Below, piece by piece: positions 5,381-43,676 of a stretch of DNA of 64,000 nt (the stretch's first letter is position 1; the number at the start of each line of letters is the position of its first letter). The DNA lies in contig CAZFCJ010000003.1 in NCBI GenBank assembly GCA_964517315.1, positions 4,487 to 68,486 on the forward strand. Reading direction: 5' to 3'. The position numbers and the translations under genes are program-made. This stretch comes from an uncultured Anaerolineaceae bacterium. GTDB lineage: Bacteria > Chloroflexota > Anaerolineae > Anaerolineales > E44-bin32. Below the pieces are notes generated by a model, which worked only from the letters and a program-made list of their open reading frames with translations, ran no database searches and was not told the origin of the DNA.

Positions 5381-5382
5381 CG

Positions 5383-9234: not shown

Positions 9235-9262
9235 GTAGGGGCACGACATGTCGTGCCCCTAC
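9235..9262. repeat. REP-like perfect 28-bp palindrome GTAGGGGCACGACATGTCGTGCCCCTAC
   Basis: Self-complementarity verified by eye. Intergenic. Confidence 0.85.
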
Positions 9263-9461
9263 GGAGGAGCGCTTGAGCGATCGGCCCACGGGTTCGCTGA
9301 GGATTGTCACCGGGAATGGACCTCGACCATCGGTTCGATTACCCGCGCGGAGGGCCAGAACACTGCCCAAGCTGGTTCAGGACCGGTCGCCGGAGCTGCA
9401 CAAACTTCCCCCAGAGCGACCTTCCCGGTCAGCCCAGGGCCTTTCAATCGCTTGGACGGGA

Positions 9462-9489
9462 ACAGGGGCGCATCGCGATGAGCCCCTAC
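9462..9489. repeat. REP-like imperfect palindrome ACAGGGGCGCATCGCGATGAGCCCCTAC
   Basis: Same GGGGC...GCCCCTAC arms. The core GCGCATCGCGATG is shared with 19169..19196. Confidence 0.75.
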
Positions 9490-9552
9490 GGTGGACCAAT
9501 CGACCTCGACCGATACTAGTTATCCTTTGGCCCGTCGGTTGCCTGAGACCGT

Positions 9553-9582
9553 GTAGGGGCGACCGGCCCGTCGCCGCTGGGG
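9553..9582. repeat. REP-like element GTAGGGGCGACCGGCCCGTCGCCGCTGGGG
   Basis: Shares the GTAGGGGCG head and has an internal GGCGAC/GTCGCC stem. Confidence 0.65.
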
Positions 9583-9676
9583 CGGTGCAACGTTCCTTCG
9601 TGACCGCATTTCGCCTCGGTGCAAATGGGTGCCGGGAGGTCGGATTGGCCGGAAAAAGTAGAAGAGGAGGTATTCA

Positions 9677-15102: not shown

Positions 15103-15497
15103 ATTCCAGCACGGGGGGCGCCGGGATCGACGCGCCTTAGCAGCCACTCCAACGCCGCCAGCACGCCTGCCAGCAGCAGTCCGAGCGGCAGGGTCAGCGC
15201 CCGATTGACCTGCAGCCAGGCGCAGAGGCCCGCGTACAGGCCGACGAGCAGGGCCTCACGCAGCAGCACCGAGCTGGCAACCGCGCCACGCTCCGAGAAC
15301 CGTCGATTGAGAAGCCAAAGGAAGGGCAGAGAGGTGCCTGTGATCGCAAGAGTCCATAAGAAGAAGAAGAGCCAGCGGGGGCCGACGGTGGGTCTGGTGC
15401 CGATGATCACCAGCAGCAGTCCTACCCAGCCGATGCCGGCCATGACGAGCGCGGACACCATCAAACTTCCGTATGGAGACGATGACTGATTGGGCAT
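15099..15497 (-). CDS. small integral membrane protein (about 4 TM), function unknown
   Basis: 132 aa, hydrophobic segments. Translationally coupled (ATGA) to selA. Confidence 0.55.
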   Translation of the reverse strand: MPNQSSSPYGSLMVSALVMAGIGWVGLLLVIIGTRPTVGPRWLFFFLWTLAITGTSLPFLWLLNRRFSERGAVASSVLLREALLVGLYAGLCAWLQVNRALTLPLGLLLAGVLAALEWLLRRVDPGAPRAGI

Positions 15498-27233: not shown

Positions 27234-28271
27234 GTGATGGTTTCCCAAATTCATCCTGAGAAGGTAACGGTTCGAGATAAGCTCAATCGGCCCCTGCGCG
27301 ATCTGCGCATCTCCGTGACGGATCGCTGTAATTTCCGCTGCGTTTACTGCATGCCGAAAGAAGTGTTCGGTCCCGGCTACCAGTTTCTGGGCCAGGACGA
27401 ACTCCTGAGTTTCGATGAGATCGAGCGCTTGACCGGTCTGTTCGCCCAACGGGGGGTCAGGAAAGTTCGCGTGACGGGCGGCGAGCCGCTGCTGCGGGTG
27501 GGGATTGAAAGGCTGGTGGAGCGGCTGGCCGGGATCCGGGGGATCGAGGACCTGACCATGACGACGAACGGATCCTTGTTGGCCAGGAAAGCCCAAGATT
27601 TGGCCAGCGCGGGGTTGAACCGGATTACGGTCAGTATGGACGCGCTGCATGACGACGTGTTCGAGGCGATGAATGAGGTCGACTTTCCGGTCGCCCCGGT
27701 GCTGGAGGGAATTGAAGCGGCCGCACAGGCCGGGCTGCGACCCGTCAAGGTGAACATGGTGGTAAAGCGCGGCGTGAACGACCGTGAGATCCTGCCCATG
27801 GTGCGGCACTTCCGCGGGACGGGCCATATCCTGCGCCTGATCGAGTATATGGACGTGGGAACGACCAACGGTTGGCGCATGCAGGACGTCGTACCGGCGG
27901 CCGAAATGCGCGACCGGATCGACGCCGCGTATCCGATTGAACCCCTCAAGGACAGCTACTATGGGGAGGTCGCCAACCGCTACCGCTTCCGCGATGGAGG
28001 AGGGGAGATCGGCATCATCGCCTCGGTCACCCAGCCGTTCTGCGGCGACTGCACGCGGCTGAGACTATCGGCGGATGGCCGGGCCTACACTTGCCTTTTC
28101 GCGGTGGAGGGCCACGATTTGCGCTCACCCCTGCGGAATGGCGCGAACGACGATGAACTCATGTCACGAATCCATCAGCTTTGGCAGCGACGGACGGACC
28201 GTTACTCGGAGGAACGCTCAGAGGAGACCATCGATCAGCCCAAGGTAGAGATGCACTTCATCGGCGGCTGA
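27234..28271 (+). CDS. moaA: GTP 3',8-cyclase (molybdenum cofactor biosynthesis protein A)
   Basis: 345 aa with radical-SAM CNFRCVYC and the C-terminal MoaA cluster motif CGDCTRLRLSADG. Confidence 0.92.
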   Translation: MMVSQIHPEKVTVRDKLNRPLRDLRISVTDRCNFRCVYCMPKEVFGPGYQFLGQDELLSFDEIERLTGLFAQRGVRKVRVTGGEPLLRVGIERLVERLAGIRGIEDLTMTTNGSLLARKAQDLASAGLNRITVSMDALHDDVFEAMNEVDFPVAPVLEGIEAAAQAGLRPVKVNMVVKRGVNDREILPMVRHFRGTGHILRLIEYMDVGTTNGWRMQDVVPAAEMRDRIDAAYPIEPLKDSYYGEVANRYRFRDGGGEIGIIASVTQPFCGDCTRLRLSADGRAYTCLFAVEGHDLRSPLRNGANDDELMSRIHQLWQRRTDRYSEERSEETIDQPKVEMHFIGG

Positions 28272-28289
28272 TCCCACCCCGGAATTTCC

Positions 28290-29057
28290 ATGGCACCGAC
28301 CGATAAGCCGTCTGAATCGACTGTTTCACAGTGGGCCATCACCGACGGGCGTCCTGTGGAGGCGGTGATTTTCGATTTGGATGGGACCCTGCGGCACAGC
28401 GAGCCGCGGAGTATGGATCTGTTCCACGACCTGGCGCAGCGACATGGGCTGAGCTTGGACGAACAGATCCGGCGAATGGCGGTACGTTGGAACCACGCTT
28501 ACTGGGCGGATTCCGAAGAGCGGGAGGCCGACGCTGAGGCCGCTGAGGACCGGGAAGCGTTTTGGTTGAACTACGCCCGGCGCCACTTGATTGCCTTGGG
28601 AGCGCGGCGCGCTCAGGCCGAAAAGTTGGCGCCGAAACTGCATCGCCTCATGGTCGAAAATTACGACCCGGTCGATGTTGTGCCGCAGGATGTGGTCCCG
28701 ACGCTCAAAGCGCTCAGCGCGCAGGGCTACCGGCTGGCGCTGGTTTCGAATCGCAGCGATCCACTGGAGGAGACGGTGACCGAGCTGTCATTGGACGGCC
28801 GCTTCGAGCTCACGCTGGCAGCGGGAGAGGTCGGCTGGTGGAAACCGGATCCCCGGCTGCTGCAGCACGCGGCCGAGGAGATCGGTGTGGAGCCTGGCTG
28901 CGCGGTCTACGTCGGCGACAACCCGTACGCCGATGTGCGCGGGGCGCGCAACGCCGGCATGCATCCAGTGCTGGTCGATCCTGAGCGCTTGTTCCCCGAA
29001 ATCCAGTGTCATAAGATCGAAACCATCGGTGAGCTGCCGACGCTTCTGGGGATCTGA
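28290..29057 (+). CDS. HAD superfamily hydrolase
   Basis: 255 aa with motif I FDLDGTL and motif IV GDNPYADV. Confidence 0.8.
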   Translation: MAPTDKPSESTVSQWAITDGRPVEAVIFDLDGTLRHSEPRSMDLFHDLAQRHGLSLDEQIRRMAVRWNHAYWADSEEREADAEAAEDREAFWLNYARRHLIALGARRAQAEKLAPKLHRLMVENYDPVDVVPQDVVPTLKALSAQGYRLALVSNRSDPLEETVTELSLDGRFELTLAAGEVGWWKPDPRLLQHAAEEIGVEPGCAVYVGDNPYADVRGARNAGMHPVLVDPERLFPEIQCHKIETIGELPTLLGI

Positions 29058-29709: not shown

Positions 29710-30843
29710 TTGAGGCGGCGCTCGATGTTCGTTGGTCAGCAATTGCGGTTGCAACAGTTCAGCGTGGTAGAATGTCCGGCGCGGCGGGGTGAGGAGAGCC
29801 CCGCTTTCTTGCTGTATGGAGGTTCTTTGAAGCGCTGGCAGTTTTGGCTCGGCATCTTGATCAGCGCCGCGTTTCTCTGGCTCGCGCTGCGAGGATTGCA
29901 GCTTGACGAGGTGTGGGAGGCGCTGCAGGGGGCCAACTACATCTGGCTGATCCCCGGCGTGGGGGCCTACATGTTGGCCGTCGTGGCCCGTGCCTGGCGC
30001 TGGCACTACCTGCTGAGGCCGCTCAAAAGCGTGCCCACCCGCTCGATGTTTCCGATCGTCGCCATTGGTTATATGGGCAACAATGTCTACCCGGCCCGCG
30101 CCGGCGAGCTTCTGCGCGCGTACGTCCTGCGCAGGCGTGAAAGCGTCCCCGTCTCGGCCTCGCTGGCGACGATCATCGTCGAGCGCGCGTTCGACGGCAT
30201 GGTGATGCTGGGCTTCGTGTTCCTCAACCTGCCGGAGCTGGCCGAAGTCACCGCCGACTCGCGCTTCGCCGGCAGCATTCAGACGTTGGCCCTGTGGGGC
30301 GTGGGCGCCTTTTCGACGTTCGTCGTGTTGTTCTTGCTGATGGCGGTGTTCCCCGAGCCCACGCTTCGAATCACCGCCTGGTTGCTGGAGCGGCTGACCC
30401 CGGCCAGCATTCGCGAACGGGCTCTGCCCCTGGCCGAGCGTTTCGTCGGCGGCCTAGAATCACTGCGCTCTCCGGCCGATGTGGGGATGGTGCTGGTCAC
30501 CTCTATCGTCATTTGGCTGCTGGAGACCGGGAAATATTGGTTCGTCATGCACGCCTTCCCCTTCACGGTCAGTTTCTTCGCGCTGATGCTGATGAACGGC
30601 GTGGTCAACCTGGCCACGACGATCCCCTCCGCACCCGGTTATGTGGGCACGTTCGACGCGCCGGGCATCGCCGTTCTCGAAGCGTACGGGGTTCCAGGTG
30701 GCCTCGCCGCTGGCTACACGCTCGTGCTGCACGCTGCGCTGTGGCTGCCCATCACGCTGCTGGGCGCCTACTTCATGGCCCGCGAGAGCTTGAGCTGGAG
30801 GCGGGTGCAGGCTGAGATGGCTCAGGAGAGCGTCACCACGTGA
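29710..30843 (+). CDS. UPF0104 / lysylphosphatidylglycerol-synthase-TM-like (flippase-like) membrane protein
   Basis: Multi-TM protein with the typical N-terminal region (FLWLALRGLQLDEVWEAL...ARAWRWHYLL). The true start is probably downstream of 29710. Confidence 0.7.
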   Translation: MRRRSMFVGQQLRLQQFSVVECPARRGEESPAFLLYGGSLKRWQFWLGILISAAFLWLALRGLQLDEVWEALQGANYIWLIPGVGAYMLAVVARAWRWHYLLRPLKSVPTRSMFPIVAIGYMGNNVYPARAGELLRAYVLRRRESVPVSASLATIIVERAFDGMVMLGFVFLNLPELAEVTADSRFAGSIQTLALWGVGAFSTFVVLFLLMAVFPEPTLRITAWLLERLTPASIRERALPLAERFVGGLESLRSPADVGMVLVTSIVIWLLETGKYWFVMHAFPFTVSFFALMLMNGVVNLATTIPSAPGYVGTFDAPGIAVLEAYGVPGGLAAGYTLVLHAALWLPITLLGAYFMARESLSWRRVQAEMAQESVTT

Positions 30844-32132
30844 AGGTGGTCGTGGTGGGCGCGGGAGTGGGGGGTCTGGCCGCCGCTTACGACCTGGCGG
30901 GGGCGGGGCACGAAGTGGTGATCTGCGAAGCGTCCGACCACGTCGGTGGATTGGCCTCGGGCTTCAAGCTGCCCCGTTGGGACTGGTCGCTGGAGCGATA
31001 CTATCATCACTGGTTCGCCTCCGACGACCACATACTCGGCTTGATCGAAGAGCTCGGCTGGAGCGACCGGCTTCTCCTCCCGCGACCGGTGACCGCCGTC
31101 TACCACAATGGTGATTTCTACGCCCTGGATTCGCCCCTCAACGTCCTCCGCTTTCCGGGCTTCAACCCGCTGGATGTGGTCCGCTTCGGTCTGGTGACGG
31201 CGTTCCTCAAGTTCACGCCCTGGTGGAGACCGCTGGAGAGCCACACTGCCGACGCATGGATGCGGCGGTATTACGGAGAGAAGATCTACCGCACGCTGTG
31301 GAAGCCGTTGCTGGAAGGGAAGTTTGGCCCCTACTATGGTGAGGTCACAATGGCCTGGTTCTGGGCCCGGGTCAAGGCCCGGACGACCCGCTTGGGCACG
31401 TTCGAGGGCGGATTCCAGGCGTTCGTCGAGGAGTTCGCCGAGGTGGTCAAGACGCGAGGCGCCCAGCTGCGGTTGCGCTCGCCTGTGGAGTCGATCCGGT
31501 CACGTGACGACGACCGCCTGGAGGTGCAATACGACTCGGGGACGATCGAGGCCGATCACGTGCTCGTCACAACCTCGCCAGCGCTGCTGGCCAAAATGGC
31601 GCCGGAGCTCCCCGCCAGTTATCTGGACAAGCTGCTGTCGCTCAAGTCGATGGGCGCCGTGGTCCTGACTCTCGCGCTGCGCGAGCGCCTCTCCAAGAAG
31701 GGGATCTACTGGCACAACCTGCCCAAGGAGGCCGGCTTCCCCTTTTTGGCGCTGGTTGAACACACGAATTTCCTGTCTCCCGCGTGCTTTGGCGGCGACC
31801 ATATCGTTTACTGCGGCGACTACTTGGTTCCTGAGCATGAGTACTTTCGGATGTCGCAGGAAGAGCTGCTCGATCGCTTCCTGCCCGCGCTCTCCCGCTT
31901 CAATCCGGAGTTCGACCGCAGTTGGGTGAAGGATGTCTGGCTTCATCGAACGCCGTACGCCCAGCCGGTCCCTCCAGTCAACCATTCGGAGAACATCCCC
32001 GCGCTGAACACGCCGATTCCCGGCTTGTGGCTGGCGAGCATGAGCCAGGTGTATCCATGGGACCGTGGGACGAACTTCGCGGTCGAAATCGGGCGGGAGG
32101 CCGCGCAGCGGATCCTGGAGGCTCAGGTCTGA
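30840..32132 (+). CDS. FAD/NAD(P)-dependent oxidoreductase (amine oxidase/phytoene desaturase-like fold)
   Basis: 430 aa with dinucleotide motif VVVVGAGVGGLAAA. GTGA overlap with the UPF0104 gene. Confidence 0.75.
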   Translation: MKVVVVGAGVGGLAAAYDLAGAGHEVVICEASDHVGGLASGFKLPRWDWSLERYYHHWFASDDHILGLIEELGWSDRLLLPRPVTAVYHNGDFYALDSPLNVLRFPGFNPLDVVRFGLVTAFLKFTPWWRPLESHTADAWMRRYYGEKIYRTLWKPLLEGKFGPYYGEVTMAWFWARVKARTTRLGTFEGGFQAFVEEFAEVVKTRGAQLRLRSPVESIRSRDDDRLEVQYDSGTIEADHVLVTTSPALLAKMAPELPASYLDKLLSLKSMGAVVLTLALRERLSKKGIYWHNLPKEAGFPFLALVEHTNFLSPACFGGDHIVYCGDYLVPEHEYFRMSQEELLDRFLPALSRFNPEFDRSWVKDVWLHRTPYAQPVPPVNHSENIPALNTPIPGLWLASMSQVYPWDRGTNFAVEIGREAAQRILEAQV

Positions 32133-34057: not shown

Positions 34058-35320
34058 ATGGTGCCCGGTAGCTCGAAGGTGGATGCCGCCGTCGAAGGCC
34101 AGGGGCCGAAGCGGAGGCGCCAGACGCCGGTGACCGTTCCCAAGAGCCTGAAACGGGCTTGGTGGACCAGCAGCTTGCTAGGTGGGGTGGGCCTCGGGCT
34201 GGGCTGGGCGCTGATCGCACGAGCTGTCGTTCCGCCGGCGGGTTGGACTTGGTTTCTGCTGAGCGCCGCGGTCTGGCTCTACCTCTCGACGTTCACTCTC
34301 CGCAGATTGGAGCGCAACCGCCGGGAGGGCGAGGCTCGTATCCTCGGCGAATGGGGGCCGGGCACATGGCTCTCTCTCCTGCGCGCCCTGTTTATCAGCG
34401 CGCTGGCAGGGTTCCTGCTCCAGGGTCGACCTCCGGGATGGCTGGCCTGGCTGCCCATGGCCCTTTACACGGTCAGCGATGTGGCCGATTATTTCGACGG
34501 CTATTTTGCCCGCCGCAGCGGCCGTGTTACGCGGCTGGGGATTGATCTTGACCTCGAGCTCGACGCCCTCGGCCTGTTGGTGGCGGTGTTGCTGGCGGTT
34601 CGCTATGGGACTCTCTCGCCCGTTTTCCTGCCCGTCGGCTTCGCCCGCTACGCGTTTGCTCTGCTGATCGTCCTCCGCCGGCGGCTCGGTCGCCCGGTTT
34701 TCGAATTGCCGACGAGCGGGCTGCGGCGGCCCATCGCCGGCCTGACAATGGGGTTTGTCAGCGCTACACTGTGGCCGATCGTCGATAGTCCTGAGGCGAA
34801 TTTAGCCGCGGTGGTGTTCCTGCTGCCATTCGGCTTGAGCTTTCTTCGGGACGGGCTCGTCGTGGCGGGGGCCGTCGATCCACACAGTGCAACCTATCGG
34901 AGTGTGCGAGAAACACTGCGCGCGGGCCTGTTTGATGTTCTTCCGCTCCTGCTGCGCCCGGTCTTGGCGGCCGCCGTCGTATTGGAGATTCAGCGTCTGA
35001 TCGGGCATCAGGACGTTGCGGTTCAGGGGCTCATGTCTTGGGGTCTCAACCATCCTGAGACCGTCCTCATGGCGTTCGCGCTGCTGGAGGCGATAGGAGC
35101 ATTGGCCCTGCTCTTGGGTTGGGCCGGACGCCTGGCGGCGTTCGCGCTCGTGTTCCCGATCGGGCTGACCATCACCGCGTCTGCGCTGGATCCGCTGAGG
35201 GGCGTGCTGTTGGCGGTGAATTTGATCTTGCTCCTGACCGGAACCGGCCGGCTGTCCCTGTGGCACCCCGAAGCCGAATGGTTCGGGCGTCCGGCCGGTC
35301 AGAAACGCGCCCCAAATTGA
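34058..35320 (+). CDS. CDP-alcohol phosphatidyltransferase family protein with extra C-terminal multi-TM domain
   Basis: Exact signature DG-x2-AR-x8-G-x3-D-x3-D (DGYFARRSGRVTRLGIDLDLELD). 420 aa, about twice the usual length. Confidence 0.85.
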   Translation: MVPGSSKVDAAVEGQGPKRRRQTPVTVPKSLKRAWWTSSLLGGVGLGLGWALIARAVVPPAGWTWFLLSAAVWLYLSTFTLRRLERNRREGEARILGEWGPGTWLSLLRALFISALAGFLLQGRPPGWLAWLPMALYTVSDVADYFDGYFARRSGRVTRLGIDLDLELDALGLLVAVLLAVRYGTLSPVFLPVGFARYAFALLIVLRRRLGRPVFELPTSGLRRPIAGLTMGFVSATLWPIVDSPEANLAAVVFLLPFGLSFLRDGLVVAGAVDPHSATYRSVRETLRAGLFDVLPLLLRPVLAAAVVLEIQRLIGHQDVAVQGLMSWGLNHPETVLMAFALLEAIGALALLLGWAGRLAAFALVFPIGLTITASALDPLRGVLLAVNLILLLTGTGRLSLWHPEAEWFGRPAGQKRAPN

Positions 35321-35343: not shown

Positions 35344-35685
35344 CTAGGATTCGTCCTGGGGCAACGAGCTCCCCGATCTCTCTGGCGTGGGGCCAAGCAG
35401 AACCCAAATCAAACGGACGACGAGCCAGGAGACCAACATATAGACAAACATGCCGATGAACGCCGGAAGGTCGAGGACCATGTCTCCGCTCGAAGGAGTG
35501 GCCGTCAGATTCAGGAACGGCCACAGCAGCCGATCAGTCAGGCCGTAGACAAAGCTCGCAAAGGCGTTGTTAGGATTTGCGGCGATGAGCTTGAGCAGGA
35601 CGCGCAGGCCGATCAGGGCTTCAATCGCGGCGAACGCCAGATAGATCAGGCGAGTCCATCGAAGCAAGATGTCATGGGTCCTCAT
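35344..35685 (-). CDS. YggT family membrane protein
   Basis: 113 aa, YGGT-like, with RBS AAGGAGG upstream. Confidence 0.65.
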   Translation of the reverse strand: MRTHDILLRWTRLIYLAFAAIEALIGLRVLLKLIAANPNNAFASFVYGLTDRLLWPFLNLTATPSSGDMVLDLPAFIGMFVYMLVSWLVVRLIWVLLGPTPERSGSSLPQDES

Positions 35686-35815: not shown

Positions 35816-36742
35816 TCAAGCGACAGATGGGTAAGCAGCACCTCTTTGTCCGCATATATCGAGCTGATGAGTGAGTAGGGCCAGGTTGCCCTCAGCGAGC
35901 TGCCTCCGTCGCTGCTCGAGCCAGGCGCGGAAGGCATCCCGGTCCAGACCGGGATGCCCCGCTAGCGCGTTCTCGACGGTATCCAGCATGAATTGCAGGG
36001 TTGTCAGCTCGTCCCGTGAATAGGCGCCGGCAGTCGGGAAAATGACCCAATCCGATGCGCCGGCTGCCGCCACTCGGCAACCTTTTTGGAGCAGCAGCGA
36101 GAGCAGCCGCCGGCCGGTTCGGCTGTGGCCCGAAGGATGACCTGAAGCGGTCGTCCTGCGGTCCATGGTCTTGTGGTACAAGCCTTCAATCCTGCGGTCC
36201 AGGTCGGGATTCAGCGTCGGCAGAAAGCGGGTCACGCCGTCGAAGTTGATCGTGAACCAGAACCAGCCCTGCGGTGGGATCAAACGCAGCAGACTTGGCA
36301 GCGTCGATTCCAGATCCACAAGGTCCAACAGCGCGTGGGCCAGGACCAGGTCCCAGTCAGACGATAGTGGCCTGAGCCCATCTTCAGTGACATCTCCATG
36401 GACCCAGCGAACCTGCAGACCCCCGTTGATATCGAGCTCGAGTCCGTTGTCGAGCGGGTGGGTCGGAACACTCTGTTCGGCGGCCCACGCGTGGAGCCGC
36501 CGATCGGCCTGGCGGAGCAGGTCGCCGTCCCGGTCCACCGCAGCGTACCGTCCGCCCCTCAGGACGCCCGCCTCGAGCAAGCGTTCGATCATCGTTCCGA
36601 TCCCCGCGCCGACCTCGACGATCCGGAGGGGGCGGGCGGGAAGTCGGTTCCAAAGCGACGTCCAAACGTGTCGATTCAAGGCCCGGTCGTCGATCGATCG
36701 CTTGGCCGCCAGATACTCCGGGTAATCGATTCGGGCGTTCAC
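35816..36742 (-). CDS. class I SAM-dependent methyltransferase (last gene of the ribA-PTPS-GT operon)
   Basis: SAM motif I RIVEVGAGIGTMIERL. The listed ORF runs to 36943 but would overlap the upstream 4-TM gene by 143 nt, so I inferred a GTG start at 36742. The start is uncertain. Confidence 0.7.
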   Translation of the reverse strand: MNARIDYPEYLAAKRSIDDRALNRHVWTSLWNRLPARPLRIVEVGAGIGTMIERLLEAGVLRGGRYAAVDRDGDLLRQADRRLHAWAAEQSVPTHPLDNGLELDINGGLQVRWVHGDVTEDGLRPLSSDWDLVLAHALLDLVDLESTLPSLLRLIPPQGWFWFTINFDGVTRFLPTLNPDLDRRIEGLYHKTMDRRTTASGHPSGHSRTGRRLLSLLLQKGCRVAAAGASDWVIFPTAGAYSRDELTTLQFMLDTVENALAGHPGLDRDAFRAWLEQRRRQLAEGNLALLTHQLDICGQRGAAYPSVA

Positions 36743-36800
36743 GCCGATCGCCTTCTCTACTGCCGCCTCAGACGGTAGGGATGCGTGAGGCGGCGTGGCC

Positions 36801-37172
36801 TCAGTGAGTTCGCTCCTCCATGGTTTCCGGCCCGGCCCGCATGTACTGCCACAAAGCCACGACAAGGATGACTTCATCCAATTTGGTGCCGTAGCCCACC
36901 AGATCGCGTGACCCCACCACAACCCAGGCCAGGATGGTGACAACCGTGTAGCCGATGAAGGCGTAGTAGAAGAGCTGCCGCCGCTCGGCGACGATCCCTG
37001 GATTCCAGAGGAACAAGACCAGCAGGCCCAGATAGCCCAGCCCGTTGAGGGTGAACATTAAATCTGGACTGCCGGTGTCGCGTATGGATGGGATGTTCAG
37101 GGCGATGAGATGTACCGCGGCGGTAGTCAGCGTGGTGATCACGATCACGGCGCGAAGTGTTGTTCTGCTCAT
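36801..37172 (-). CDS. 4-TM membrane protein, paralog A (function unknown)
   Basis: RBS GGAGGAG before ATG 37172 (MSRTTLRAV). About 55% identical by eye to the adjacent paralog, with shared blocks HLxxLNIP, TGSPD, FTLNGLGYLGLL and KLDExxLxVALW. Confidence 0.7.
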   Translation of the reverse strand: MSRTTLRAVIVITTLTTAAVHLIALNIPSIRDTGSPDLMFTLNGLGYLGLLVLFLWNPGIVAERRQLFYYAFIGYTVVTILAWVVVGSRDLVGYGTKLDEVILVVALWQYMRAGPETMEERTH

Positions 37173-37369
37173 GGTCCTCTCCTCCACAAGGAGCGTATCC
37201 AATCAGTTTTGTGATGGTCTGACTGTCGAGCGGGTAAGTCGGCCGGTGCCTCCTTCCTTTCCCAGGCCCGTATGGGCTCGGGCTTCCCATCGGGTGAATG
37301 TGCCAGGCGTGTGATCGACGACCAACGGCGCTTCGCACTCGACGGTGGAAACACGGGTCTGCCGGCCCC

Positions 37370-37753
37370 TCATGCCGGGGTCGATTGCGGTTCCTGGCGC
37401 ATATGCAGCCACAGGGCGACGATCAGGACGAGTTCATCGAGTTTGGTCAAATAGCCGAGCGGATCTACCTCCGTTCCACCGAAGCCTGTCCCGCCCAGGA
37501 TAAAGAACGCGACGATCGTGATCCCGGCAAAGGACATGAAGAGGTAATGGAAAAGGTCCCACTGCTCGGCCACGAAGCGCTGTTGAGTGAAGAACAGGGC
37601 CAGCAACCCAAGATAGCCGAGGCCGTTGAGTGTGAAGAGAATGTCCGGGCTGCCGGTTTCGCGCACGAAGGGGATGTTGAGGACGACGAGATGCACCCCG
37701 GCTGCGAACAAGCCGGTGACAAGGATTACGCCGCGGAGTGTCGAGCGGTTCAT
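37370..37753 (-). CDS. 4-TM membrane protein, paralog B (function unknown)
   Basis: 127 aa. ATGA overlap with the GT4 stop. Paralog of 36801..37172. Confidence 0.7.
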   Translation of the reverse strand: MNRSTLRGVILVTGLFAAGVHLVVLNIPFVRETGSPDILFTLNGLGYLGLLALFFTQQRFVAEQWDLFHYLFMSFAGITIVAFFILGGTGFGGTEVDPLGYLTKLDELVLIVALWLHMRQEPQSTPA

Positions 37754-38898
37754 AAAGTCCTCCTAGGATTGTTCGCTTCTTGTGTCTCTGCTGTTCCAAT
37801 TGGATCCTCGGAGCGGCCGCGGTGCCTCTGCATCAAGCTCCCCAAAAATTCCATGACCGTCTCTCCCGTGTCCTCCCAGGTGGGATGAGAAAGGTAGCGG
37901 GCCCGGGCGGCTTCGGCAAGTGGGACGAGCCGCTGGGACCGTTGAAGCAGGGGCCGCAAAATCCGCGCCAGGGTCTCGGGGGACTCGGGCGGCACAAGAT
38001 AGCCATTGCGTCCGTCTTCGACGAGCTCTTGGGCCCCGCCTCTGGCCGAGGCCACGACCGGGAGGCCGAATCCCATCGCTTCCAAGTACACCATCCCGAA
38101 CCCCTCAAGCTGCGAAGGCACCACGAGCAGATGGGCCTTGCGATAGCGCTGCCGCAGGGCCGCACGGGGCAGCTGCCCGTGAAACCGCACGCGCTCCTTA
38201 TCTCCGCCCCGTAGAGACAGCCGCCTCATTTTGCGGGCGTATTCAGGATCCAGATCCTCCCGCCCAACCACGTGCAGTCGCCAATTCTCGTCCCCTAAGT
38301 GCAGCAAGGCATGCAAAAGCGTGTGCAGGCCCTTGCGCGGGGTCAGTCCACCGACGAACAGCAGTTGGACCGGGTGTCCGGCATCCGGCGTGAGCTGGGC
38401 CTCGGACTCCGGGATGTTCTCACCGCGCCCCGGGTACGCGACCACGCCGGGAGCGGACGGCCCGATGAGGGCTCGGACGCTGTCTCGGGTGTGACGGGAG
38501 TTGAAGATGAAGCCGTCCAGGGTCCGCAGATAGGCGCTTTCCATCCACCGGTACAAAGCAGCCAAAGGGGAAGGGTGATCTTCCAGGCTGCGCAGATGAT
38601 GCACGATGGCCACCCTGGGCGGGCGGTCCGGCGGCAGCGCCCAACGATTGAGCCCCACCAAAGCCGGGTGACACAATTCATCCTGCAGCACGATGTCGGC
38701 CTCCAGCGCACGAAATCGATTGTGCCAATACCGGTCGAAATTTTGGGCAAGCTGCAAACCGTATCGTCGCCATGGGAGACTGACGACCTGCAGCGTCCAT
38801 CCGGCGTTTTGCAGTTCTTGCATGAGGCATCTGTCGTAAATGAATCCGCCCGTGGTCTCCGACAGATCGCCGCACAGGACCAGAGCGAGGCGGTTCAA
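37750..38898 (-). CDS. GT4-family (GT-B) glycosyltransferase
   Basis: Motif EGFGMVYLEAMGFGLPVVAS. Inferred TTG start at 38898 forms a TTGA overlap with the PTPS-like stop. The listed ORF extends to 39018. Confidence 0.8.
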   Translation of the reverse strand: MNRLALVLCGDLSETTGGFIYDRCLMQELQNAGWTLQVVSLPWRRYGLQLAQNFDRYWHNRFRALEADIVLQDELCHPALVGLNRWALPPDRPPRVAIVHHLRSLEDHPSPLAALYRWMESAYLRTLDGFIFNSRHTRDSVRALIGPSAPGVVAYPGRGENIPESEAQLTPDAGHPVQLLFVGGLTPRKGLHTLLHALLHLGDENWRLHVVGREDLDPEYARKMRRLSLRGGDKERVRFHGQLPRAALRQRYRKAHLLVVPSQLEGFGMVYLEAMGFGLPVVASARGGAQELVEDGRNGYLVPPESPETLARILRPLLQRSQRLVPLAEAARARYLSHPTWEDTGETVMEFLGSLMQRHRGRSEDPIGTAETQEANNPRRTL

Positions 38899-39302
38899 AG
38901 TTCCAGTGTAAAAGAAGCCCAGGCCTGATCGTCTTCCCAGAGTCGGACTTCGATCCAATCTACTTGAGGTTCGTCGATCTGGCCGGCCAACCCGCGGGCG
39001 AAAACTGTGGCGAACCACTCCAGGCTCGGGTTGCGGTCGGCGAAGGGCTGGAGTTCGTTGAGGGTTTGGTCGCGGTACCTCTCGATTTCCTGATCGAGGC
39101 GCCGCTCCACGTCGACCAGATCCAGCAGGTACTCATGCTCGTTCAGCTGGGCCGAGCCAAAACGGGCTTCGATCCGGTAGTGGTGGCTGTGCAGTTCATT
39201 TTCGGGCCCCCAATCGCCTCCCACGAGGTAGTGCTGGGCGACGAATTCCCGCCGTAAACATAGCTGGTACATGCCGCCGTGACCTCCCGTGTTCTGGCTC
39301 AC
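38895..39302 (-). CDS. 6-pyruvoyl-tetrahydropterin synthase/QueD-family (COG0720 T-fold) protein, non-canonical active site
   Basis: FVAQH...ENELHSHHY aligns with QueD FEAAH...CGRLHGH. The His triad is retained, but Glu sits at the catalytic-Cys position. Start is either GTG 39302 (GTGA overlap) or ATG 39272 (MYQLCLRREF). Confidence 0.75.
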   Translation of the reverse strand: MSQNTGGHGGMYQLCLRREFVAQHYLVGGDWGPENELHSHHYRIEARFGSAQLNEHEYLLDLVDVERRLDQEIERYRDQTLNELQPFADRNPSLEWFATVFARGLAGQIDEPQVDWIEVRLWEDDQAWASFTLEL

Positions 39303-40330
39303 CGCGCTTGACCATACGTGATCACGATTTGCACCGTGTCCTCCGGCCGGTCCAACAAGTCGTAGGCTTCTTCCGCCCTTTCAATCGGCAGCTCGTGGGT
39401 GATCAAGCGGGAAGGCCGGAGTCGGCGGGCAGCCAAGACTGCGGTCCGGAGGCGGCGGGATGCGGACCAGCGCCCGCGGTGTTTGGGATCTAGTCTTGAG
39501 ACTTGACTGCTGATGACCTTAAGTCCGGAGCGATGGAAACGCTGACCGAGCCGGAGGTGGACGGGATCCTCACCGTACCACGCGCCGACCACGACCCGCC
39601 CACTGTATCCAGTGGTCGCCAGAGCCAGGTCCAACGCGGCCGGTGCACCGGAAATCTCGAAGCTCAGATCCGCATCTGCCGGTTCGGGACTGGCGAGCAG
39701 CTCGCGGAGCTCCTCGCCCGCTTCCTTACGGCCCGGGTCGAGGCACTCGTCCGCGCCCCATTCCAGTGAGGCCCGGCGGCGGTTCGCTGCGGGATCCAGC
39801 GTGATGAGCCTCGCCAGCGGCAATTCTGCCAGAAGCGCGGTCGTCAGCAGGCCGACCACACCCTGCCCGTGGACGACGACCTTTTCGCCCACGAGGGGCG
39901 CGCCGTCCAGCATGAAGTTGACCGCCGTTTCCAGGTTAGCCATGAACACGGCGTCCTGCGGGGGCAGATCGTCCGGCAACGGAACGACGTCGTTGGGGTG
40001 GCAGATGAAGTGGCTCTCATGGGGACGAAATGCGAAAACACGGCGGCCGAGCCATGCCTGATCGGTGTGGGGCCCGGCCGCCTTGACCACGCCGACTGCA
40101 CTGTAACCGTACTTGAGCGGATACTCCAAACGTCCGTTTAACGCCGGCAAGCTGAAATCGACTTCGCTTCCCTCGGGGACCTGACCTTTGAAGAACAGCC
40201 GCTCCGTGCCGGCGCTCACCGCGGTGAGTTGGGTTCGGACAAGGATCTCGCCATGGCCCGGTTCAGGAACGGGGCCCTCGCGCACCTCGACCTGACCCGG
40301 CTCGCGTATCCACAGCGCCCGGTGTATCAT
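39299..40330 (-). CDS. MDR-superfamily zinc-type alcohol dehydrogenase-like oxidoreductase
   Basis: GroES-like N-terminal domain plus Rossmann motif VVVHGQGVVGLL. Start ATG 40330 forms an ATGA overlap with the RibD-like stop. Confidence 0.8.
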   Translation of the reverse strand: MIHRALWIREPGQVEVREGPVPEPGHGEILVRTQLTAVSAGTERLFFKGQVPEGSEVDFSLPALNGRLEYPLKYGYSAVGVVKAAGPHTDQAWLGRRVFAFRPHESHFICHPNDVVPLPDDLPPQDAVFMANLETAVNFMLDGAPLVGEKVVVHGQGVVGLLTTALLAELPLARLITLDPAANRRRASLEWGADECLDPGRKEAGEELRELLASPEPADADLSFEISGAPAALDLALATTGYSGRVVVGAWYGEDPVHLRLGQRFHRSGLKVISSQVSRLDPKHRGRWSASRRLRTAVLAARRLRPSRLITHELPIERAEEAYDLLDRPEDTVQIVITYGQAR

Positions 40331-41070
40331 CGTTGGTCCACGCTCGGCCGAGCCCAGAGGACCATATCGTCGCCGGCGGGCGCCCACCGGGGTTTTGTCA
40401 GTTCCGGGAAGCCTCTCGATTCGGGCCCAGCATCGTACGGCCGAACGCCGTTCATCATGCGCGGAGCGAGTGTGATGACGACCAAATCGACGAGGTCGGA
40501 CTGGAGGAAGCTGTGGATGATCCTCGCGCCTCCCTCCACCATCAACCGATCAACGCCGCGCTCGCGCAGCGCGCGGGCCAGTGCCGCCAGATCCAGTCTC
40601 TCAACATTGTTCTGAGGAATGTGCATGATCTCGACGCCCAGGGACTGCAGTTGGCTCTTGCGTTCCGGGTCGACGTCGGGGGCGCAGGCGATCCATGGCT
40701 TGAGGTCGCCAGTCACCAGCGTGCAATCCGGCGGCGTGCGAAGCCTGGAGTCGACGATAATGGCTTGTGGGTCCGAACCCTCCGAGCCGCGGGCCGTGAG
40801 TTGGGGGTCGTCCGCCAGGACGGTTCCAATGCCGACGAGAATCCCGTCATGCAGTGTACGAAGCTTATGTGTCATGGTCAATGAAGCGTCGCCGCTTAGG
40901 GTCGTCTTGACGCCCGGCTTGACAGAGATGCTGCCGTCGAGAGCCTGCGCGAACGTCAAGGTGAGGTGAGGCCGATCTGAATGCGGGAGCGCCTCGCTCA
41001 AGTGTGAGTAAAGCGCGCTAAGTGCGTCGTCCATTCGAAGGGCGCCGCGACTGCGCGTGTCCATCCCCAT
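40327..41070 (-). CDS. RibD C-terminal-domain reductase only (diamino/amino-ribosylaminopyrimidine 5'-phosphate reductase-like); no deaminase domain
   Basis: LTLTFAQALDGSI...LRTLHDGILVGIGTVLADDPQLT...RLMVEGGARIIHSFL matches the RibD_C/RIB7 pattern. Start is 41070 or 41034, and both overlap the ribA 3' end. Confidence 0.8.
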   Translation of the reverse strand: MGMDTRSRGALRMDDALSALYSHLSEALPHSDRPHLTLTFAQALDGSISVKPGVKTTLSGDASLTMTHKLRTLHDGILVGIGTVLADDPQLTARGSEGSDPQAIIVDSRLRTPPDCTLVTGDLKPWIACAPDVDPERKSQLQSLGVEIMHIPQNNVERLDLAALARALRERGVDRLMVEGGARIIHSFLQSDLVDLVVITLAPRMMNGVRPYDAGPESRGFPELTKPRWAPAGDDMVLWARPSVDQR

Positions 41071-41674
41071 CCGGAGTCAGGTCGAGCAGATGATTCAAGC
41101 GGACCGACTTGGCCCGCAGGTAGGAAGCGTTCTCGTCGGTGACCGGGGCCTCGAGTGGCACTCGGGCAGCAACGTGGATGCCGGCCTGATTCAGTTGGTC
41201 AATCTTATCCGGATTGTTGGTCAGCAGCCGCACGCTGAAGACATGCAAATCGCGGAGGATCGCAGCCGCGGTACTGTAGTCGCGCGCATCCGGCGCGTGG
41301 CCGAGCATCAGGTTGGCATCCACTGTATCGTAGCCTTCGTCCTGCAGGTTGTAGGCGCGAAGCTTATCCAGTAAGCCGATGCCTCGGCCTTCTTGGCGCA
41401 TATAGAGTACGACCCCCCGGCCCTCCTCCGCGATCTCGGCCAGTGAGCGCTTCAGCTGGACTCCACAGTCGCAGCGGGTTGAGCCCATCACGTCGCCCGT
41501 GAAGCACTCCGAGTGAATTCGCACGAGAACGGGATCCTCGGCGGTGAGGTCTCCCATCAGCATGGCCAGGTGCTGTTTATCGTCGCTGTCACTCTCGTAG
41601 AGACAAAGTCTGAATTCGCCCCTGCTGGTGGGGATGCGGGCCGAGGAGCGTATGCGGACTGCGGGGTCGGTCAT
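41018..41674 (-). CDS. ribA: GTP cyclohydrolase II (monofunctional, no RibB domain)
   Basis: Zinc-site HSECFTGD...RCDCG, RQEGRGIGL, and LRAYNLQD (Tyr equivalent to E. coli Y105 retained). Start set at ATG 41674 (MTDPAVRIR). Confidence 0.88.
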   Translation of the reverse strand: MTDPAVRIRSSARIPTSRGEFRLCLYESDSDDKQHLAMLMGDLTAEDPVLVRIHSECFTGDVMGSTRCDCGVQLKRSLAEIAEEGRGVVLYMRQEGRGIGLLDKLRAYNLQDEGYDTVDANLMLGHAPDARDYSTAAAILRDLHVFSVRLLTNNPDKIDQLNQAGIHVAARVPLEAPVTDENASYLRAKSVRLNHLLDLTPDGDGHAQSRRPSNGRRT

Positions 41675-41912
41675 GGCAGGTTCTGTCCTTGCGGTGTCGG
41701 GCGCACATTGCCGTCTCTCAAACGGCCGACCACGGTTTGTGCGCACATGAACTGCTGGATTGCCCTGGCGGGGACGTAGGCGTGGCCCTCCTCGTTATTT
41801 CTTACGGGCGAAAAGCGCATATTGGATTGAACCCATTCTACCGGATGTCCATGAGATGCGAATCCGCGGGAAGGGATGAACGCGATAACATTAGGCCGTT
41901 GCAGGTCGTGAA

Positions 41913-43676
41913 GTGAGCTCGGGAGCCCTACAGTTGCGCGAACCCAAGCAAGTTGCCCACAGCCAGGCAGTGCGCGATTATCGGCGCGCACGTCAGAAAG
42001 CGGCCTTGCAGATCATATTCGATCGGCTCCGCGGACGGCCCACAGAGCTGCTTTCTTATGAGCAGGTTCAAGACAAGCTGCGGGCTCGTCCATCGTCGTC
42101 GAAGAAGCTGCGCGAAATCCCCCTGAATTCCATTGTTGGCAGCGTAGGCCGTTACGGCGATTTCACCCGCTCGTTCCTGCCCCGCGATGCGAGCGATGAG
42201 CAGCGATGGGCGCGTGTCAAAGCTATGGCTGAGGACCTGCAGGGGCTGCCTCCGATCGACGTGTACAAGATCGGCGAAGCCTATTTCGTGAGCGACGGTC
42301 ACCACCGCGTTTCCGTCGCCCGAGAGTTCGGAGCGGCGACGATTGAAGCCTATGTGACGGAGGTCAGCGCCCGGGTGGCCGTCACAGCCGAGGACGAAGC
42401 CCGCGATGTCATTCTCAAGGGGGAGTACACACACTTCCTGCAGCGGACCGAGCTGGACAAGCTGCGGCCGGAGGCCGAGATCCGGCTCACAGAGCCCGGA
42501 AAGTATGAAGCGCTGCTGGAGCACATCGACGTGCACCGGTACTTCATGGGCATCGAGCGGTCTCAGGAGGTCCCCTACGGGCAAGCAGTCGTTCACTGGT
42601 ACGACAGCGTCTATCTGCCGGTCGTCCATTCGATCCGCCAACAAGGCATCTTAAGGGATTTCCCAGGACGCACCGAGGCGGATTTGTATCTGTGGGTCAT
42701 GGAACATCGTGAACAACTGCGCGAGAGTTTGGGTTGGGAGGTGACCGCCGACCAGGCTGCCGAGAGCCTGGCATTCCGCCATGGCCGAACGTCGAGCCGT
42801 GTGGTCGGCCGTGTGGGTGAGCGCATCCGAGAGGCGATCGTCCCCGAGGAGCTGGACGGCGGGCCACCCGCCGGCGACTGGCGACGGCAGGTCGTATCTC
42901 GGCGCACCGACGATCGGCTGTTCAGGGACATCCTGGTTCCGGTCAGTGGGGACGACGCGGGCTGGCAGGCGGTGGAGCAGGCCATAACCATCGCCCGGCG
43001 AGAGGGTGGCCGGATGCTCGGATTGCACGTGCTGGTCGGCGATGCCGAGGAGGAGCTGCAGCGCAGCAGACGGATGCGCGAGAGATTCCAATCCCGGTGT
43101 GAAGAGAGCGAAATCCCCGGCCAAATGATCGCTGAGTTCGGTGAGATTTCAGTGGTGATCGCCGAGCGGGCGCGCTGGACGGACCTGGTGGTCCTGAGCT
43201 TGCAGCACCCGCCGGGCGAAAGTCCCTCCGCCAGGCTGAGTTCGGGCCTTAGCAAACTCATCCGCCGCTGCCCGCGGCCGCTCCTTATCGTCCCCAATGA
43301 GGCGACCGAGCTGGCCCACCCACTGCTCGCCTACGACGGCAGTCCAAAGGCCCGGGAAGCGCTTTTCGTGGCGGCGTACGCGGCCTCGGCCTGGGGCCTG
43401 CCGCTCACCGTTCTCAGCGTGCAGGAGGACGATGGGGGTGGCGAGGCAGCGCTGCGCGAAGCACAAGGATATCTCGACGAACGAGGTGTGGAAGCCGAGT
43501 TCGTGCTGGGCGAAGGCGAGCTCGTAAGAGCTCTCCTGGAATTGGCGGAAGCGAAGGCGTGCGATCTGCTTCTCTTGGGGGGCTATGGAGCCAATCCGGT
43601 GTTGGAAGCGGTTTTGGGGAGCAGCGTCGACCAGGTGCTGCGCCGCTCAACGCTGCCGCTGCTGATCTGCCGTTGA
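41913..43676 (+). CDS. multidomain protein: ParB/sulfiredoxin-like N-terminal domain + helical middle region + two universal stress protein (USP) domains
   Basis: The YFVSDGHHRVSVAREFG motif (ParB-like DGHHR), then two USP-like modules (ILVPVSGDD..., LLAYDGSPKAREAL...). The start is uncertain (GTG 41913). Confidence 0.65.
   Translation: MSSGALQLREPKQVAHSQAVRDYRRARQKAALQIIFDRLRGRPTELLSYEQVQDKLRARPSSSKKLREIPLNSIVGSVGRYGDFTRSFLPRDASDEQRWARVKAMAEDLQGLPPIDVYKIGEAYFVSDGHHRVSVAREFGAATIEAYVTEVSARVAVTAEDEARDVILKGEYTHFLQRTELDKLRPEAEIRLTEPGKYEALLEHIDVHRYFMGIERSQEVPYGQAVVHWYDSVYLPVVHSIRQQGILRDFPGRTEADLYLWVMEHREQLRESLGWEVTADQAAESLAFRHGRTSSRVVGRVGERIREAIVPEELDGGPPAGDWRRQVVSRRTDDRLFRDILVPVSGDDAGWQAVEQAITIARREGGRMLGLHVLVGDAEEELQRSRRMRERFQSRCEESEIPGQMIAEFGEISVVIAERARWTDLVVLSLQHPPGESPSARLSSGLSKLIRRCPRPLLIVPNEATELAHPLLAYDGSPKAREALFVAAYAASAWGLPLTVLSVQEDDGGGEAALREAQGYLDERGVEAEFVLGEGELVRALLELAEAKACDLLLLGGYGANPVLEAVLGSSVDQVLRRSTLPLLICR

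Follow-up and report, generated by a model that had tools for sequence, protein, structure and literature searches.

What is a GTP cyclohydrolase II gene doing at the head of an operon that continues with a reductase, a dehydrogenase, a pterin-synthase-like protein, a glycosyltransferase and a methyltransferase? The question is raised by eight genes in a stretch of DNA of 64,000 nucleotides (nt) from an uncultured Anaerolineaceae bacterium of the Chloroflexota (assembly GCA_964517315.1, contig CAZFCJ010000003.1, positions 4,487 to 68,486), the whole of which is referred to here as the window. The original prediction for this locus was that a GTP-derived aminopyrimidine or pterin is diverted into a modified compound. 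Our analysis supports and extends it, through co-conservation of the genes across phyla and through the match of the PTPS/QueD-fold (T-fold) protein of the operon to SCO6650 of Streptomyces. The locus probably encodes a dedicated, non-riboflavin pathway that starts from GTP. We consider the case evenly balanced that it represents the Chloroflexota type of a cluster that is widely conserved across domains and turns GTP into a glycosylated, methylated head group linked to a lipid by a phosphodiester.

Gene order and conservation of the cluster

The features of the locus are the following (coordinates in the window):

41675..41912, no strand, intergenic region 5' of ribA with one promoter-like site and no riboswitch (promoter scan, Rfam)
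41018..41674, minus strand, stand-alone GTP cyclohydrolase II, RibA-type without RibB domain (PF00925, TIGR00505, NF001591)
40327..41070, minus strand, RibD_C pyrimidine reductase domain only, without deaminase domain (PF01872)
39299..40330, minus strand, BchC-like medium-chain dehydrogenase/reductase (MDR) without catalytic zinc ligands (ADH_zinc_N)
38895..39272, minus strand, T-fold protein of the SCO6650 (PTPS-IV) lineage (PF01242)
37750..38898, minus strand, retaining-type glycosyltransferase of family 4 (GT4; PF00534, PF13692)
37370..37753, minus strand, DUF7475 four-helix membrane protein, paralog B (PF24287)
36801..37172, minus strand, DUF7475 four-helix membrane protein, paralog A (PF24287)
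35816..36742, minus strand, class I S-adenosylmethionine-dependent methyltransferase of an uncharacterised family (weak Methyltransf models)
34058..35320, plus strand, divergent CDP-alcohol phosphatidyltransferase (PF01066)

Related loci were collected in a pattern-limited scan of one genome per species and compared by tblastn and clustering of open reading frames (ORFs). The scan returned 38 loci, from Anaerolineales, other Chloroflexota, Desulfobacterales, Desulfomonilaceae, Desulfobaccia, Salinibacter, Salinivenus and Halobacteria (Halorubrum, Halorhabdus and Halosegnis); family counts were made over 44 loci, single ones being designated L001 and so on. The order RibA, RibD_C, MDR, T-fold, GT4, (DUF7475), methyltransferase recurs in about 20 bacterial loci of the Anaerolineales, other Chloroflexota, Desulfobacterota and Salinibacter/Salinivenus. 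Since these loci are independent and belong to several phyla, the arrangement lies far beyond chance. The T-fold gene is the most frequent member (41 of the 44 loci), followed by MDR (35), GT4 (32), methyltransferase (27), RibD_C (20) and RibA (17), and in 32 loci the GT4 gene comes after the T-fold gene. RibD_C occurs without RibA in five Desulfobacterota loci, and ORF clustering revealed no further family that is widely shared among the related loci. The original prediction was to be given up if the neighbours of ribA and ribD proved not to be co-conserved with them; the recurring order speaks for the opposite, as does the fusion of RibA and RibD_C into one protein in four loci (L013, L014, L022 and L039).

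The cluster is also found in archaea. The haloarchaeal order is DUF7475, GT4, a fusion of GFO/IDH/MocA and aldo-keto reductase, CDP-alcohol transferase, GTP cyclohydrolase III (E 3e-85; NCBIfam 361 bits versus a cut-off of 306), MDR, T-fold and methyltransferase. Three archaeal metagenomic loci are minimal and carry only MDR, T-fold and GT4; the small genes beside them were considered as DUF7475 candidates and rejected, as they are not members of that family. A Halobacteriales metagenome-assembled genome (MAG; L034) combines T-fold, GT4 and methyltransferase genes with a homologue of the creatininase family (ArfB-like formamide hydrolase), which parallels Streptomyces.

Several single loci deviate in other ways. 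In Salinibacter and Salinivenus, a phage-type integrase gene lies directly after the cluster (L013, 12449-13645; L022, 11529-12626), which suggests a mobile island and would fit patchy sharing with co-habiting haloarchaea. MDR (L018, 8957-9980) and RibD_C (L020, 8310-8943) are split into two adjacent ORFs in Desulfobacterota MAGs, either through frameshift sequencing errors or as decaying copies. Two GT4 paralogues flank the T-fold gene in an Anaerolineae locus (L001, 2586-5219), which may point to a di-glycosylated product variant. Two Anaerolineales loci (L003, 9014-9958; L004, 9056-9922) contain an extra class I methyltransferase (CMAS/Methyltransf_31-like) between MDR and T-fold, the position that an ICMT/PEMT-type methyltransferase takes in Desulfobacterales.

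Operon structure in the window

All eight genes are co-directional on the minus strand from 41674 to 35816, as first described; each was seen in the ORF list and by direct reading of the minus strand, and the Pfam assignments agree, weakly for the methyltransferase. The ribA gene starts at ATG 41674 (alternative GTG 41746), and its TAG (41020-41018) was read within the RibD_C ORF, which begins at ATG 41070 (53-nt overlap) or ATG 41034 (17-nt overlap), again as predicted. From ribA through the first DUF7475 gene (paralog B), stop/start overlaps are continuous: ATGA at 40330-40327 (RibD_C stop, MDR start), GTGA at 39302-39299 (MDR stop, GTG of the T-fold ORF), TTGA at 38898-38895 (T-fold stop, GT4 TTG start) and ATGA at 37753-37750 (GT4 stop, paralog B start). 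The four junctions thus lie where they had been placed. However, ATG 39272, which is preceded by GGAGG and yields a product of 125 amino acids (aa) of the same length as database entry P0001, is more likely the T-fold start than GTG 39302, so the GTGA overlap may not be a functional junction. The earlier proposal of a TTG start for GT4 gains support, as conservation of the family begins exactly at that residue.

The operon had further been described as having almost no intergenic space. This applies up to the first DUF7475 gene, beyond which 197 nt (37369-37173) separate the two DUF7475 genes and about 58 nt precede the methyltransferase gene. A GGAGG-like sequence is present 5' of paralog A. 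The methyltransferase likely starts at GTG 36742 and not further upstream, giving a protein of 308 aa in agreement with the lengths of its homologues. The promoter scan placed the promoter-like site 5' of ribA at 41862-41835 on the minus strand.

Two genes border the operon. A YGGT-family membrane gene (35344-35685, minus strand) lies between the methyltransferase and CDP-alcohol transferase genes; it was dismissed as a part of the system, being present in the window alone among the 44 loci. Divergent from the ribA promoter region, a plus-strand gene (41913-43676) encodes a 587-aa protein in which two universal-stress-protein domains and, weakly, DUF4032 are recognized. A role as regulator or stress-linked partner is conceivable, and the gene was not found as a conserved neighbour in the related loci.

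Cyclohydrolase, reductase and the riboflavin question

RibA matches PF00925 (GTP_cyclohydro2; E 3e-67) and scores above both RibA cut-offs of NCBIfam (TIGR00505, 257.3 bits versus 205.85; NF001591, 258 versus 148). It contains the zinc motif C-x10-C-x-C and the tyrosine of KLRAYNLQ, and a motif search recovered both KLRAYNLQ and the zinc cysteines in all 14 cluster-linked bacterial cyclohydrolases that were matched (the window and 13 related loci). In RibA, this tyrosine directs the release of formate and thereby the formation of the diaminopyrimidine product rather than formamidopyrimidine (FAPy). The original prediction had contrasted the tyrosine of the window with its replacement in a Streptomyces paralogue (SCO6655), and rightly so: the latter reads KLRAMALQ, is adjoined by a creatininase gene and is reportedly FAPy-forming.

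The second enzyme matches PF01872 over residues 34-237 of 247 (E 3e-40; 138.5 bits versus a cut-off of 24.1). This is its sole Pfam match, and the cytidine-deaminase-like N-terminal domain is absent. It is borderline with TIGR00227 (149.8 bits versus 150.15), and the archaeal reductase model TIGR01508 (128 bits) fits it better than does eubact_ribD, the model for bacterial RibD (89.6 bits, below its cut-off of 156). A dedicated RibD_C occurs in the Chloroflexota, Desulfobacterota and Salinibacter-type loci and is absent from the archaeal and Streptomyces loci. The bacterial housekeeping riboflavin pathway deaminates first, whereas the archaeal pathway reduces first and makes a non-deaminated ribityl intermediate. 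Outside Streptomyces, the distribution of RibD_C and the lack of a deaminase therefore point to the non-deaminated ribityl compound as the entry metabolite. The minimal archaeal loci, which have neither a dedicated cyclohydrolase nor a dedicated reductase, fit this picture, as the archaeal riboflavin route already makes the ribityl intermediate.

The simplest reading would be that ribA and ribD_C are housekeeping genes of early riboflavin (or F420-precursor) synthesis and that the downstream genes are unrelated neighbours. In its favour, RibA exceeds curated cut-offs with all catalytic residues checked in place, the gene copies were viewed within the 64-kb window, from which a second copy elsewhere in the genome is not demonstrable, and one review assigns PTPS-IV to F420 synthesis, citing unpublished work (PMC5041015). 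Nevertheless, we consider it hardly credible. The neighbours are co-conserved with ribA/ribD_C in the bacterial loci and with GTP cyclohydrolase III in archaea, and the overlaps bind ribA to the genes up to the first DUF7475 gene. As had been claimed for the locus, no RibB, RibH, RibE or deaminase was found by Pfam among about 53/59 candidate ORFs of the window, and ORF clustering of the related loci returned nothing resembling RibB, RibH or RibE among the conserved neighbours. Rfam detected no riboswitch in the window at gathering threshold, 5' of ribA at E ≤ 1, or in seven related loci (FMN riboswitch in 0/8 loci). The absent riboswitch and the absence of further rib genes in these window scans led us to reject a riboflavin operon. 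The cluster-linked S. coelicolor copy, moreover, is the third of three RibA paralogues and has a new function unrelated to flavin synthesis according to a recent review (PMC13151069).

The likeness to riboflavin synthesis thus concerns its first two enzymes in the archaeal and fungal order (GTP cyclohydrolase II/III, then Rib7/ArfC reductase before deamination), which are homologous to RibA and RibD_C of the window and whose intermediate, 2,5-diamino-6-ribitylamino-4(3H)-pyrimidinone 5'-phosphate, is the one predicted here. In the window, in contrast, these genes are coupled to MDR, T-fold, GT4 and methyltransferase genes.

Elsewhere in the window (27234-29057, plus strand), a gene for MoaA (radical SAM and Mob_synth_C), likewise a GTP-consuming enzyme, is followed by one for a HAD-family phosphatase. 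The distance of this pair is about 5 kb to the CDP-alcohol transferase gene and about 12 kb to ribA. In other organisms, the ribityl intermediate of riboflavin is dephosphorylated by HAD phosphatases.

The T-fold protein

The T-fold protein belongs to PF01242 (E 8e-23; 81.1 bits versus a cut-off of 22.4) and stays far below the cut-off of the QueD equivalog TIGR03367 (31.9 versus 89.25 bits). The position of the catalytic cysteine of QueD is taken by a glutamate (PENELHSH), whereas the true QueD-type sequences of L014 and L037 carry KCxxLHGH. Neither the CxxxHGH motif of PTPS-I (QueD) nor the ExxHGH motif by which PTPS-III, the FolB-bypass type, is defined (PMC5041015) is present, E-N-E-L-H-S-H having its glutamates at -4 and -2 and not at -3. 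An ordinary QueD or FolB-bypass enzyme, named from the outset as the identity that would undo the prediction, was ruled out on this equivalog score and these motifs.

Alignments of 41 locus-derived sequences and 49 database homologues show H14, E24, H28, H30 and E113 to be invariant or nearly so. The three histidines, retained in at least 90% of the 49 family members, align with the metal ligands of QueD/PTPS; E113, the substrate-anchoring glutamate near the C-terminus, is invariant in the family. The family motif reads F-V-A-Q-H-(Y/F)-L-x-G-G-D-W-G-P-E-N-E-L-H-S-H. A search of 1.84 billion representative proteins gave 187 clusters at E<1e-10, and most of the 150 that were listed show the pattern H...E...H-x-H; an exact look-up of the T-fold protein of the window yielded no recorded gene. 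SCO6650 (3d7j) is the sole sequence match in the PDB (E 9.5e-6). An AlphaFold (AF2) model built on the 49-sequence alignment (pLDDT 96.1; secondary structure E-E-H-H-E-E) likewise has 3d7j as its best fold match (TM 0.92, root-mean-square deviation 1.7 Å), ahead of E. coli QueD (TM 0.82) and of animal and Plasmodium PTPS.

In an earlier study, AGeNNT placed GTP cyclohydrolase II in the neighbourhood of PTPS-IV (PMC5445326). By this neighbourhood criterion, with PF00925 nearby, and by SCO6650 as its closest relative, the T-fold protein is assigned to this type. The strict PTPS-IV signature, namely FGPAQ and loss of the zinc ligands, is not found: WGPEN stands at the aligned position and H14, H28 and H30 are kept, whereas the Streptomyces proteins, SCO6650 included, have FGPAQ...HGA and lack the third histidine. 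Judged from these alignments, the T-fold protein represents a lineage sister to PTPS-IV in which the site of three histidines and a glutamate is kept, rather than a strict PTPS-IV.

The same system in Streptomyces

SCO6650 and SCO6655 are reportedly part of a system that has been an orphan since 2006-2008, with a crystal structure for the T-fold protein and altered chemistry for the cyclohydrolase II paralogue. The link to it, drawn in the original prediction, was examined with the neighbourhood of a 98%-identical Streptomyces homologue of SCO6650. This locus comprises a divergent gene for a CDP-alcohol transferase; MDR, SCO6650 and GT4; a methyltransferase gene whose start overlaps the GT4 stop; LPG_synthase_TM (5e-32); the creatininase (4e-67); and the KLRAMALQ GTP cyclohydrolase II. 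By BLAST, its MDR (E 1e-49), CDP-alcohol transferase (E 1e-13) and cyclohydrolase (52% identity) match the cluster families and its GT4 matches that of the window (E 5e-23). The Streptomyces methyltransferase and LPG_synthase_TM have no BLAST match to the cluster families and were assigned by Pfam only, the former weakly.

These matches, together with the fit of the T-fold protein to 3d7j, bear out this link, and by gene content the locus of the window is the same system as the SCO6650-SCO6655 cluster. Both contain CDP-alcohol transferase, zinc-less MDR, T-fold, GT4, methyltransferase and GTP cyclohydrolase II, with MDR, T-fold and GT4 in this order. The window differs in having the canonical cyclohydrolase tyrosine, no creatininase, and RibD_C and two DUF7475 genes in addition, and its flippase-like gene is not adjacent. 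The cluster type is thus already known as an orphan, but our literature searches turned up no paper in which its product, a link to the CDP-alcohol transferase, DUF7475 or its occurrence in archaea is named.

CDP-alcohol phosphatidyltransferase and the membrane link

Convergent with the operon lies the CDP-alcohol transferase gene, which falls outside the coordinates of the original prediction and was overlooked there. Its product matches PF01066 (E 1e-11; 45.9 bits versus a cut-off of 22), has extra C-terminal membrane helices and retains an intact catalytic motif (DYFDGYFARRSGRVTRLGIDLDLELD; pattern D-x2-D-G-x2-A-R-x(n)-G-x3-D-x3-D). It fits no curated PgsA, PIPS, Pss or Cls equivalog (pgsA 31.6 versus 109; ClsA 25.4 versus 240), and the Streptomyces orthologue reaches 24 bits with the archaetidylinositol phosphate synthase model (cut-off 180). 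Such a gene occurs within 10 kb of the cluster in 16 of the 44 loci (the window, 14 others and Streptomyces L040), in three arrangements: upstream on the same strand, downstream and convergent, or inside the archaeal cluster.

Further membrane functions accompany it. Flippase-like LPG_synthase_TM genes are present in eight loci and stand beside the CDP-alcohol transferase gene in seven loci of Anaerolineales and other Chloroflexota. An ICMT/PEMT-type membrane methyltransferase gene lies between MDR and T-fold in three Desulfobacterales loci, and PgpA adjoins MDR in L032. The two DUF7475 proteins of the window (PF24287; paralog B E 1e-8, above the cut-off; paralog A E 8e-10) share 53% identity and have homologues in ten other loci, haloarchaeal ones included. 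CDP-alcohol transferase (16 loci), flippase-like (8) and DUF7475 genes (11) are enriched far beyond chance. A membrane-associated product, at first one possibility among several, thereby becomes the main lead, strengthened by the CDP-alcohol transferase, its flippase-like partner and the archaeal versions.

A similar pairing is known from the actinobacterial phosphatidylinositol (PI)/phosphatidylinositol mannoside (PIM) module and MprF-type flippases, in which a CDP-alcohol transferase (PgsA1, phosphatidylinositol phosphate synthase) goes with a GT4 (PimA). By analogy only, the logic of a glycosylated polyol head group on a phospholipid, again with a flippase-like protein in eight loci, can be recognized in the cluster. 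Unlike in the PI/PIM module, the transferase fits no curated PgsA, PIPS or Pss, and the alcohol would come from GTP instead of inositol phosphate.

The window contains an LPG_synthase_TM gene of its own (29710-30843; 3e-54, TIGR00374). Together with a PRK07233-type FAD amine-oxidase/HpnE-like gene (471 bits, above cut-off), with which it shares a 4-nt overlap, it spans 29710-32132 on the plus strand, 2 kb from the CDP-alcohol transferase gene. We did not count this LPG_synthase_TM gene as part of the cluster, as it is only weakly related to the cluster-linked family (24% identity, E 2.5e-8) and three unrelated genes lie in between.

Dehydrogenase, glycosyltransferase and methyltransferase

The MDR protein matches ADH_zinc_N (E 6e-11), its ADH_N score remaining below the cut-off (17.5 versus 23.5 bits). 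Its best full-length NCBIfam match is BchC (TIGR01202), a secondary-alcohol dehydrogenase, at 78.4 bits against a cut-off of 291, so that the predicted enzyme is BchC-like in architecture only. The family consensus has SxGTE and YGY in place of the zinc-ligand motifs CGxD and GHE and thus lacks the catalytic zinc ligands of zinc-dependent MDR alcohol and polyol dehydrogenases. PDB matches to sorbitol and threonine dehydrogenases cover residues 117-326 only, the nucleotide-binding half.

The methyltransferase resembles Methyltransf_12, 25, 23 and 11 (E 1e-5 to 2e-3, all four below their cut-offs), has no NCBIfam match and belongs to a family with motifs such as ExGxGxG, FDGxT and SDW that is present in 26 other loci. 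GT4 is more readily classified (PF00534, E 3e-36, 125 bits; PF13692, E 6e-34), with the family-conserved EX7E motif EGFGMVYLEAMGFG. Sucrose-phosphate synthase, MshA and UDP-glucose:tetrahydrobiopterin glucosyltransferase (5zer/5ze7, among the five best) are its top PDB matches, all confined to the generic donor-binding domain.

The last of these matches bears on a second reading, in which the product is a soluble pterin glycoside, made by a counterpart of the biopterin-glucoside, tepidopterin or cyanopterin pathways that is independent of GTP cyclohydrolase I. MDR would act like a sepiapterin reductase, the T-fold protein like PTPS and GT4 as a pteridine glycosyltransferase, with the CDP-alcohol transferase unrelated or adding a small phospho-alcohol. 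Indeed, MDR, T-fold and GT4 are the invariant core everywhere and mirror the established reductase, PTPS and glycosyltransferase logic of cyanobacteria and Chlorobium; the T-fold protein retains the pterin-anchoring glutamate and the metal ligands; and several loci have no CDP-alcohol transferase nearby. The tetrahydrobiopterin-glycoside pathways (GTP cyclohydrolase I, PTPS, sepiapterin reductase and BGluT-type GT4) resemble the cluster in combining a T-fold enzyme with a side-chain oxidoreductase and a GT4 of about 355-380 aa. The cluster, however, is entered by GTP cyclohydrolase II/III and not I, its T-fold protein lacks the catalytic cysteine, its oxidoreductase is an MDR instead of a short-chain dehydrogenase/reductase, and phosphotransfer and membrane genes are attached in the numbers given above. 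We discarded the GT4 match as evidence for a pterin acceptor, as it covers the donor domain only. A soluble pterin glycoside is therefore unlikely in our view.

Proposed pathway and its assessment

In the preferred reading of a lipid-linked head group, GTP cyclohydrolase II, judged by homology and with its catalytic residues present, would form 2,5-diamino-6-ribosylamino-4(3H)-pyrimidinone 5'-phosphate (step 1). Across the loci there are three entry routes, namely canonical GTP cyclohydrolase II, the methionine variant with an adjacent creatininase-family gene, and archaeal GTP cyclohydrolase III, all of which converge on this compound by established enzymology. Homology, gene fusion and the absent deaminase suggest that RibD_C reduces the ribosyl compound to its ribityl form without deamination (step 2). 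The zinc-less BchC-like MDR may then act on the ribityl chain by oxidising one of its secondary alcohols, and the T-fold enzyme, with its putative metal centre of three histidines and its glutamate, may bind the retained 2-amino-4-oxopyrimidine face and process the oxidised chain (step 3). The most plausible outcome would be ring closure to a 6-substituted dihydropterin: oxidation at C2' would give an Amadori-type ketone closing onto the 5-amino group to yield a 6-substituted 7,8-dihydropterin, the net chemistry being that of the GTP cyclohydrolase I reaction in its second half. GT4 would add a sugar and the methyltransferase a methyl group (step 4), for which the enzyme classes are evident and the acceptors conjectural. 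As the conserved neighbourhood suggests, the CDP-alcohol transferase would use CDP-diacylglycerol (CDP-archaeol in archaea) to join the compound to a lipid by a phosphodiester, and the flippase-like and DUF7475 membrane proteins would handle the lipid-linked product (step 5).

The genes for phosphotransfer and methylation invite a third reading. In aminopentanetetrol (APT) lipids, the head group carries nitrogen on C1 and phosphate on C5. Ribitylamine is chemically an aminopentanetetrol, and its skeleton with this polarity and the methyltransferases would fit such phospholipids (PMC6423904). The T-fold metallo-enzyme would free 5-phospho-ribitylamine, which the CDP-alcohol transferase would attach to the lipid before N-methylation. 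APT lipids with mono-, di- and tri-N-methylation occur in Methanomicrobiales, Aquificae and Thermodesulfobacterium, and no biosynthetic genes are reported in the papers concerned (PMC6423904, PMC4318418, PMC5572230, PMC11346949). The cluster offers a CDP-alcohol transferase, one or two methyltransferases, a flippase-like protein and a site of three histidines and a glutamate that resembles a hydrolytic metal centre. We nonetheless hold this route to be quite improbable. None of the 38 loci from the pattern-limited scan comes from a known APT-producing taxon, and APT lipids are not known from the cultured cluster-bearing taxa Streptomyces, Salinibacter and Halorubrum. Spending one GTP per molecule of a bulk lipid and throwing away the pyrimidine would be costly, the additional MDR and GT4 have no obvious role, and the PEMT-family gene resembles ICMT/LmtA O-methyltransferases more than amine methyltransferases.

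Several points weigh against the preferred reading of a lipid-linked head group. The steps after the cyclohydrolase are predictions from the genes. The Streptomyces locus, without RibD_C, breaks the distribution pattern of this enzyme, and for it and the haloarchaeal clusters, which also lack RibD_C, we infer the ribityl intermediate. SCO6650 itself lacks the third histidine, and the depositors of its structure are said to have reported the protein as zinc-free; metal chemistry may thus not be universal to the T-fold family. No CDP-alcohol transferase gene lies within 10 kb of the Salinibacter, Salinivenus, Desulfomonilaceae-type and minimal archaeal loci, so lipid attachment may be optional or encoded elsewhere, and enzymes of this family also form soluble phosphodiesters such as di-myo-inositol phosphate. 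No report is known of an unusual lipid made from GTP in Streptomyces, Salinibacter or Halorubrum. The assignment of PTPS-IV to F420 synthesis, mentioned above, also belongs here.

Other genes in the window

A block of aromatic-acid degradation genes occupies 136-11101 on the plus strand. It encodes an AMP-binding ligase, a DHDPS-like protein, an alpha/beta hydrolase, an FAA hydrolase, two aldehyde dehydrogenases, an HpaB-type 4-hydroxyphenylacetate 3-hydroxylase with flavin reductase, a glyoxalase-fold dioxygenase and a thioesterase. The selenocysteine synthase gene selA (13741-15147, minus strand; 9e-129) implies that the organism probably uses selenoproteins.

Implications

Far from being peculiar to Streptomyces, the cluster is conserved in both bacteria and archaea, and it is tied to phospholipid head-group machinery. 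On a more specific and tentative proposal, which we rate as somewhat doubtful, it would make a new class of membrane lipids in Actinobacteria, Chloroflexota, Desulfobacterota, Rhodothermota and Halobacteria. These would be diacylglycerol or archaeol phospholipids with a glycosylated and methylated, GTP-derived pterin- or diaminopyrimidine-polyol head group, brought to the outer leaflet by a dedicated MprF-like flippase, in effect a pterin-type cofactor or pigment anchored to a lipid. Should the product indeed be a lipid head group made from GTP, or a pterin anchored in this way, it would represent a new branch of both pterin/flavin and membrane-lipid biochemistry and would explain thousands of genes that are now mis-annotated as '6-carboxytetrahydropterin synthase'.

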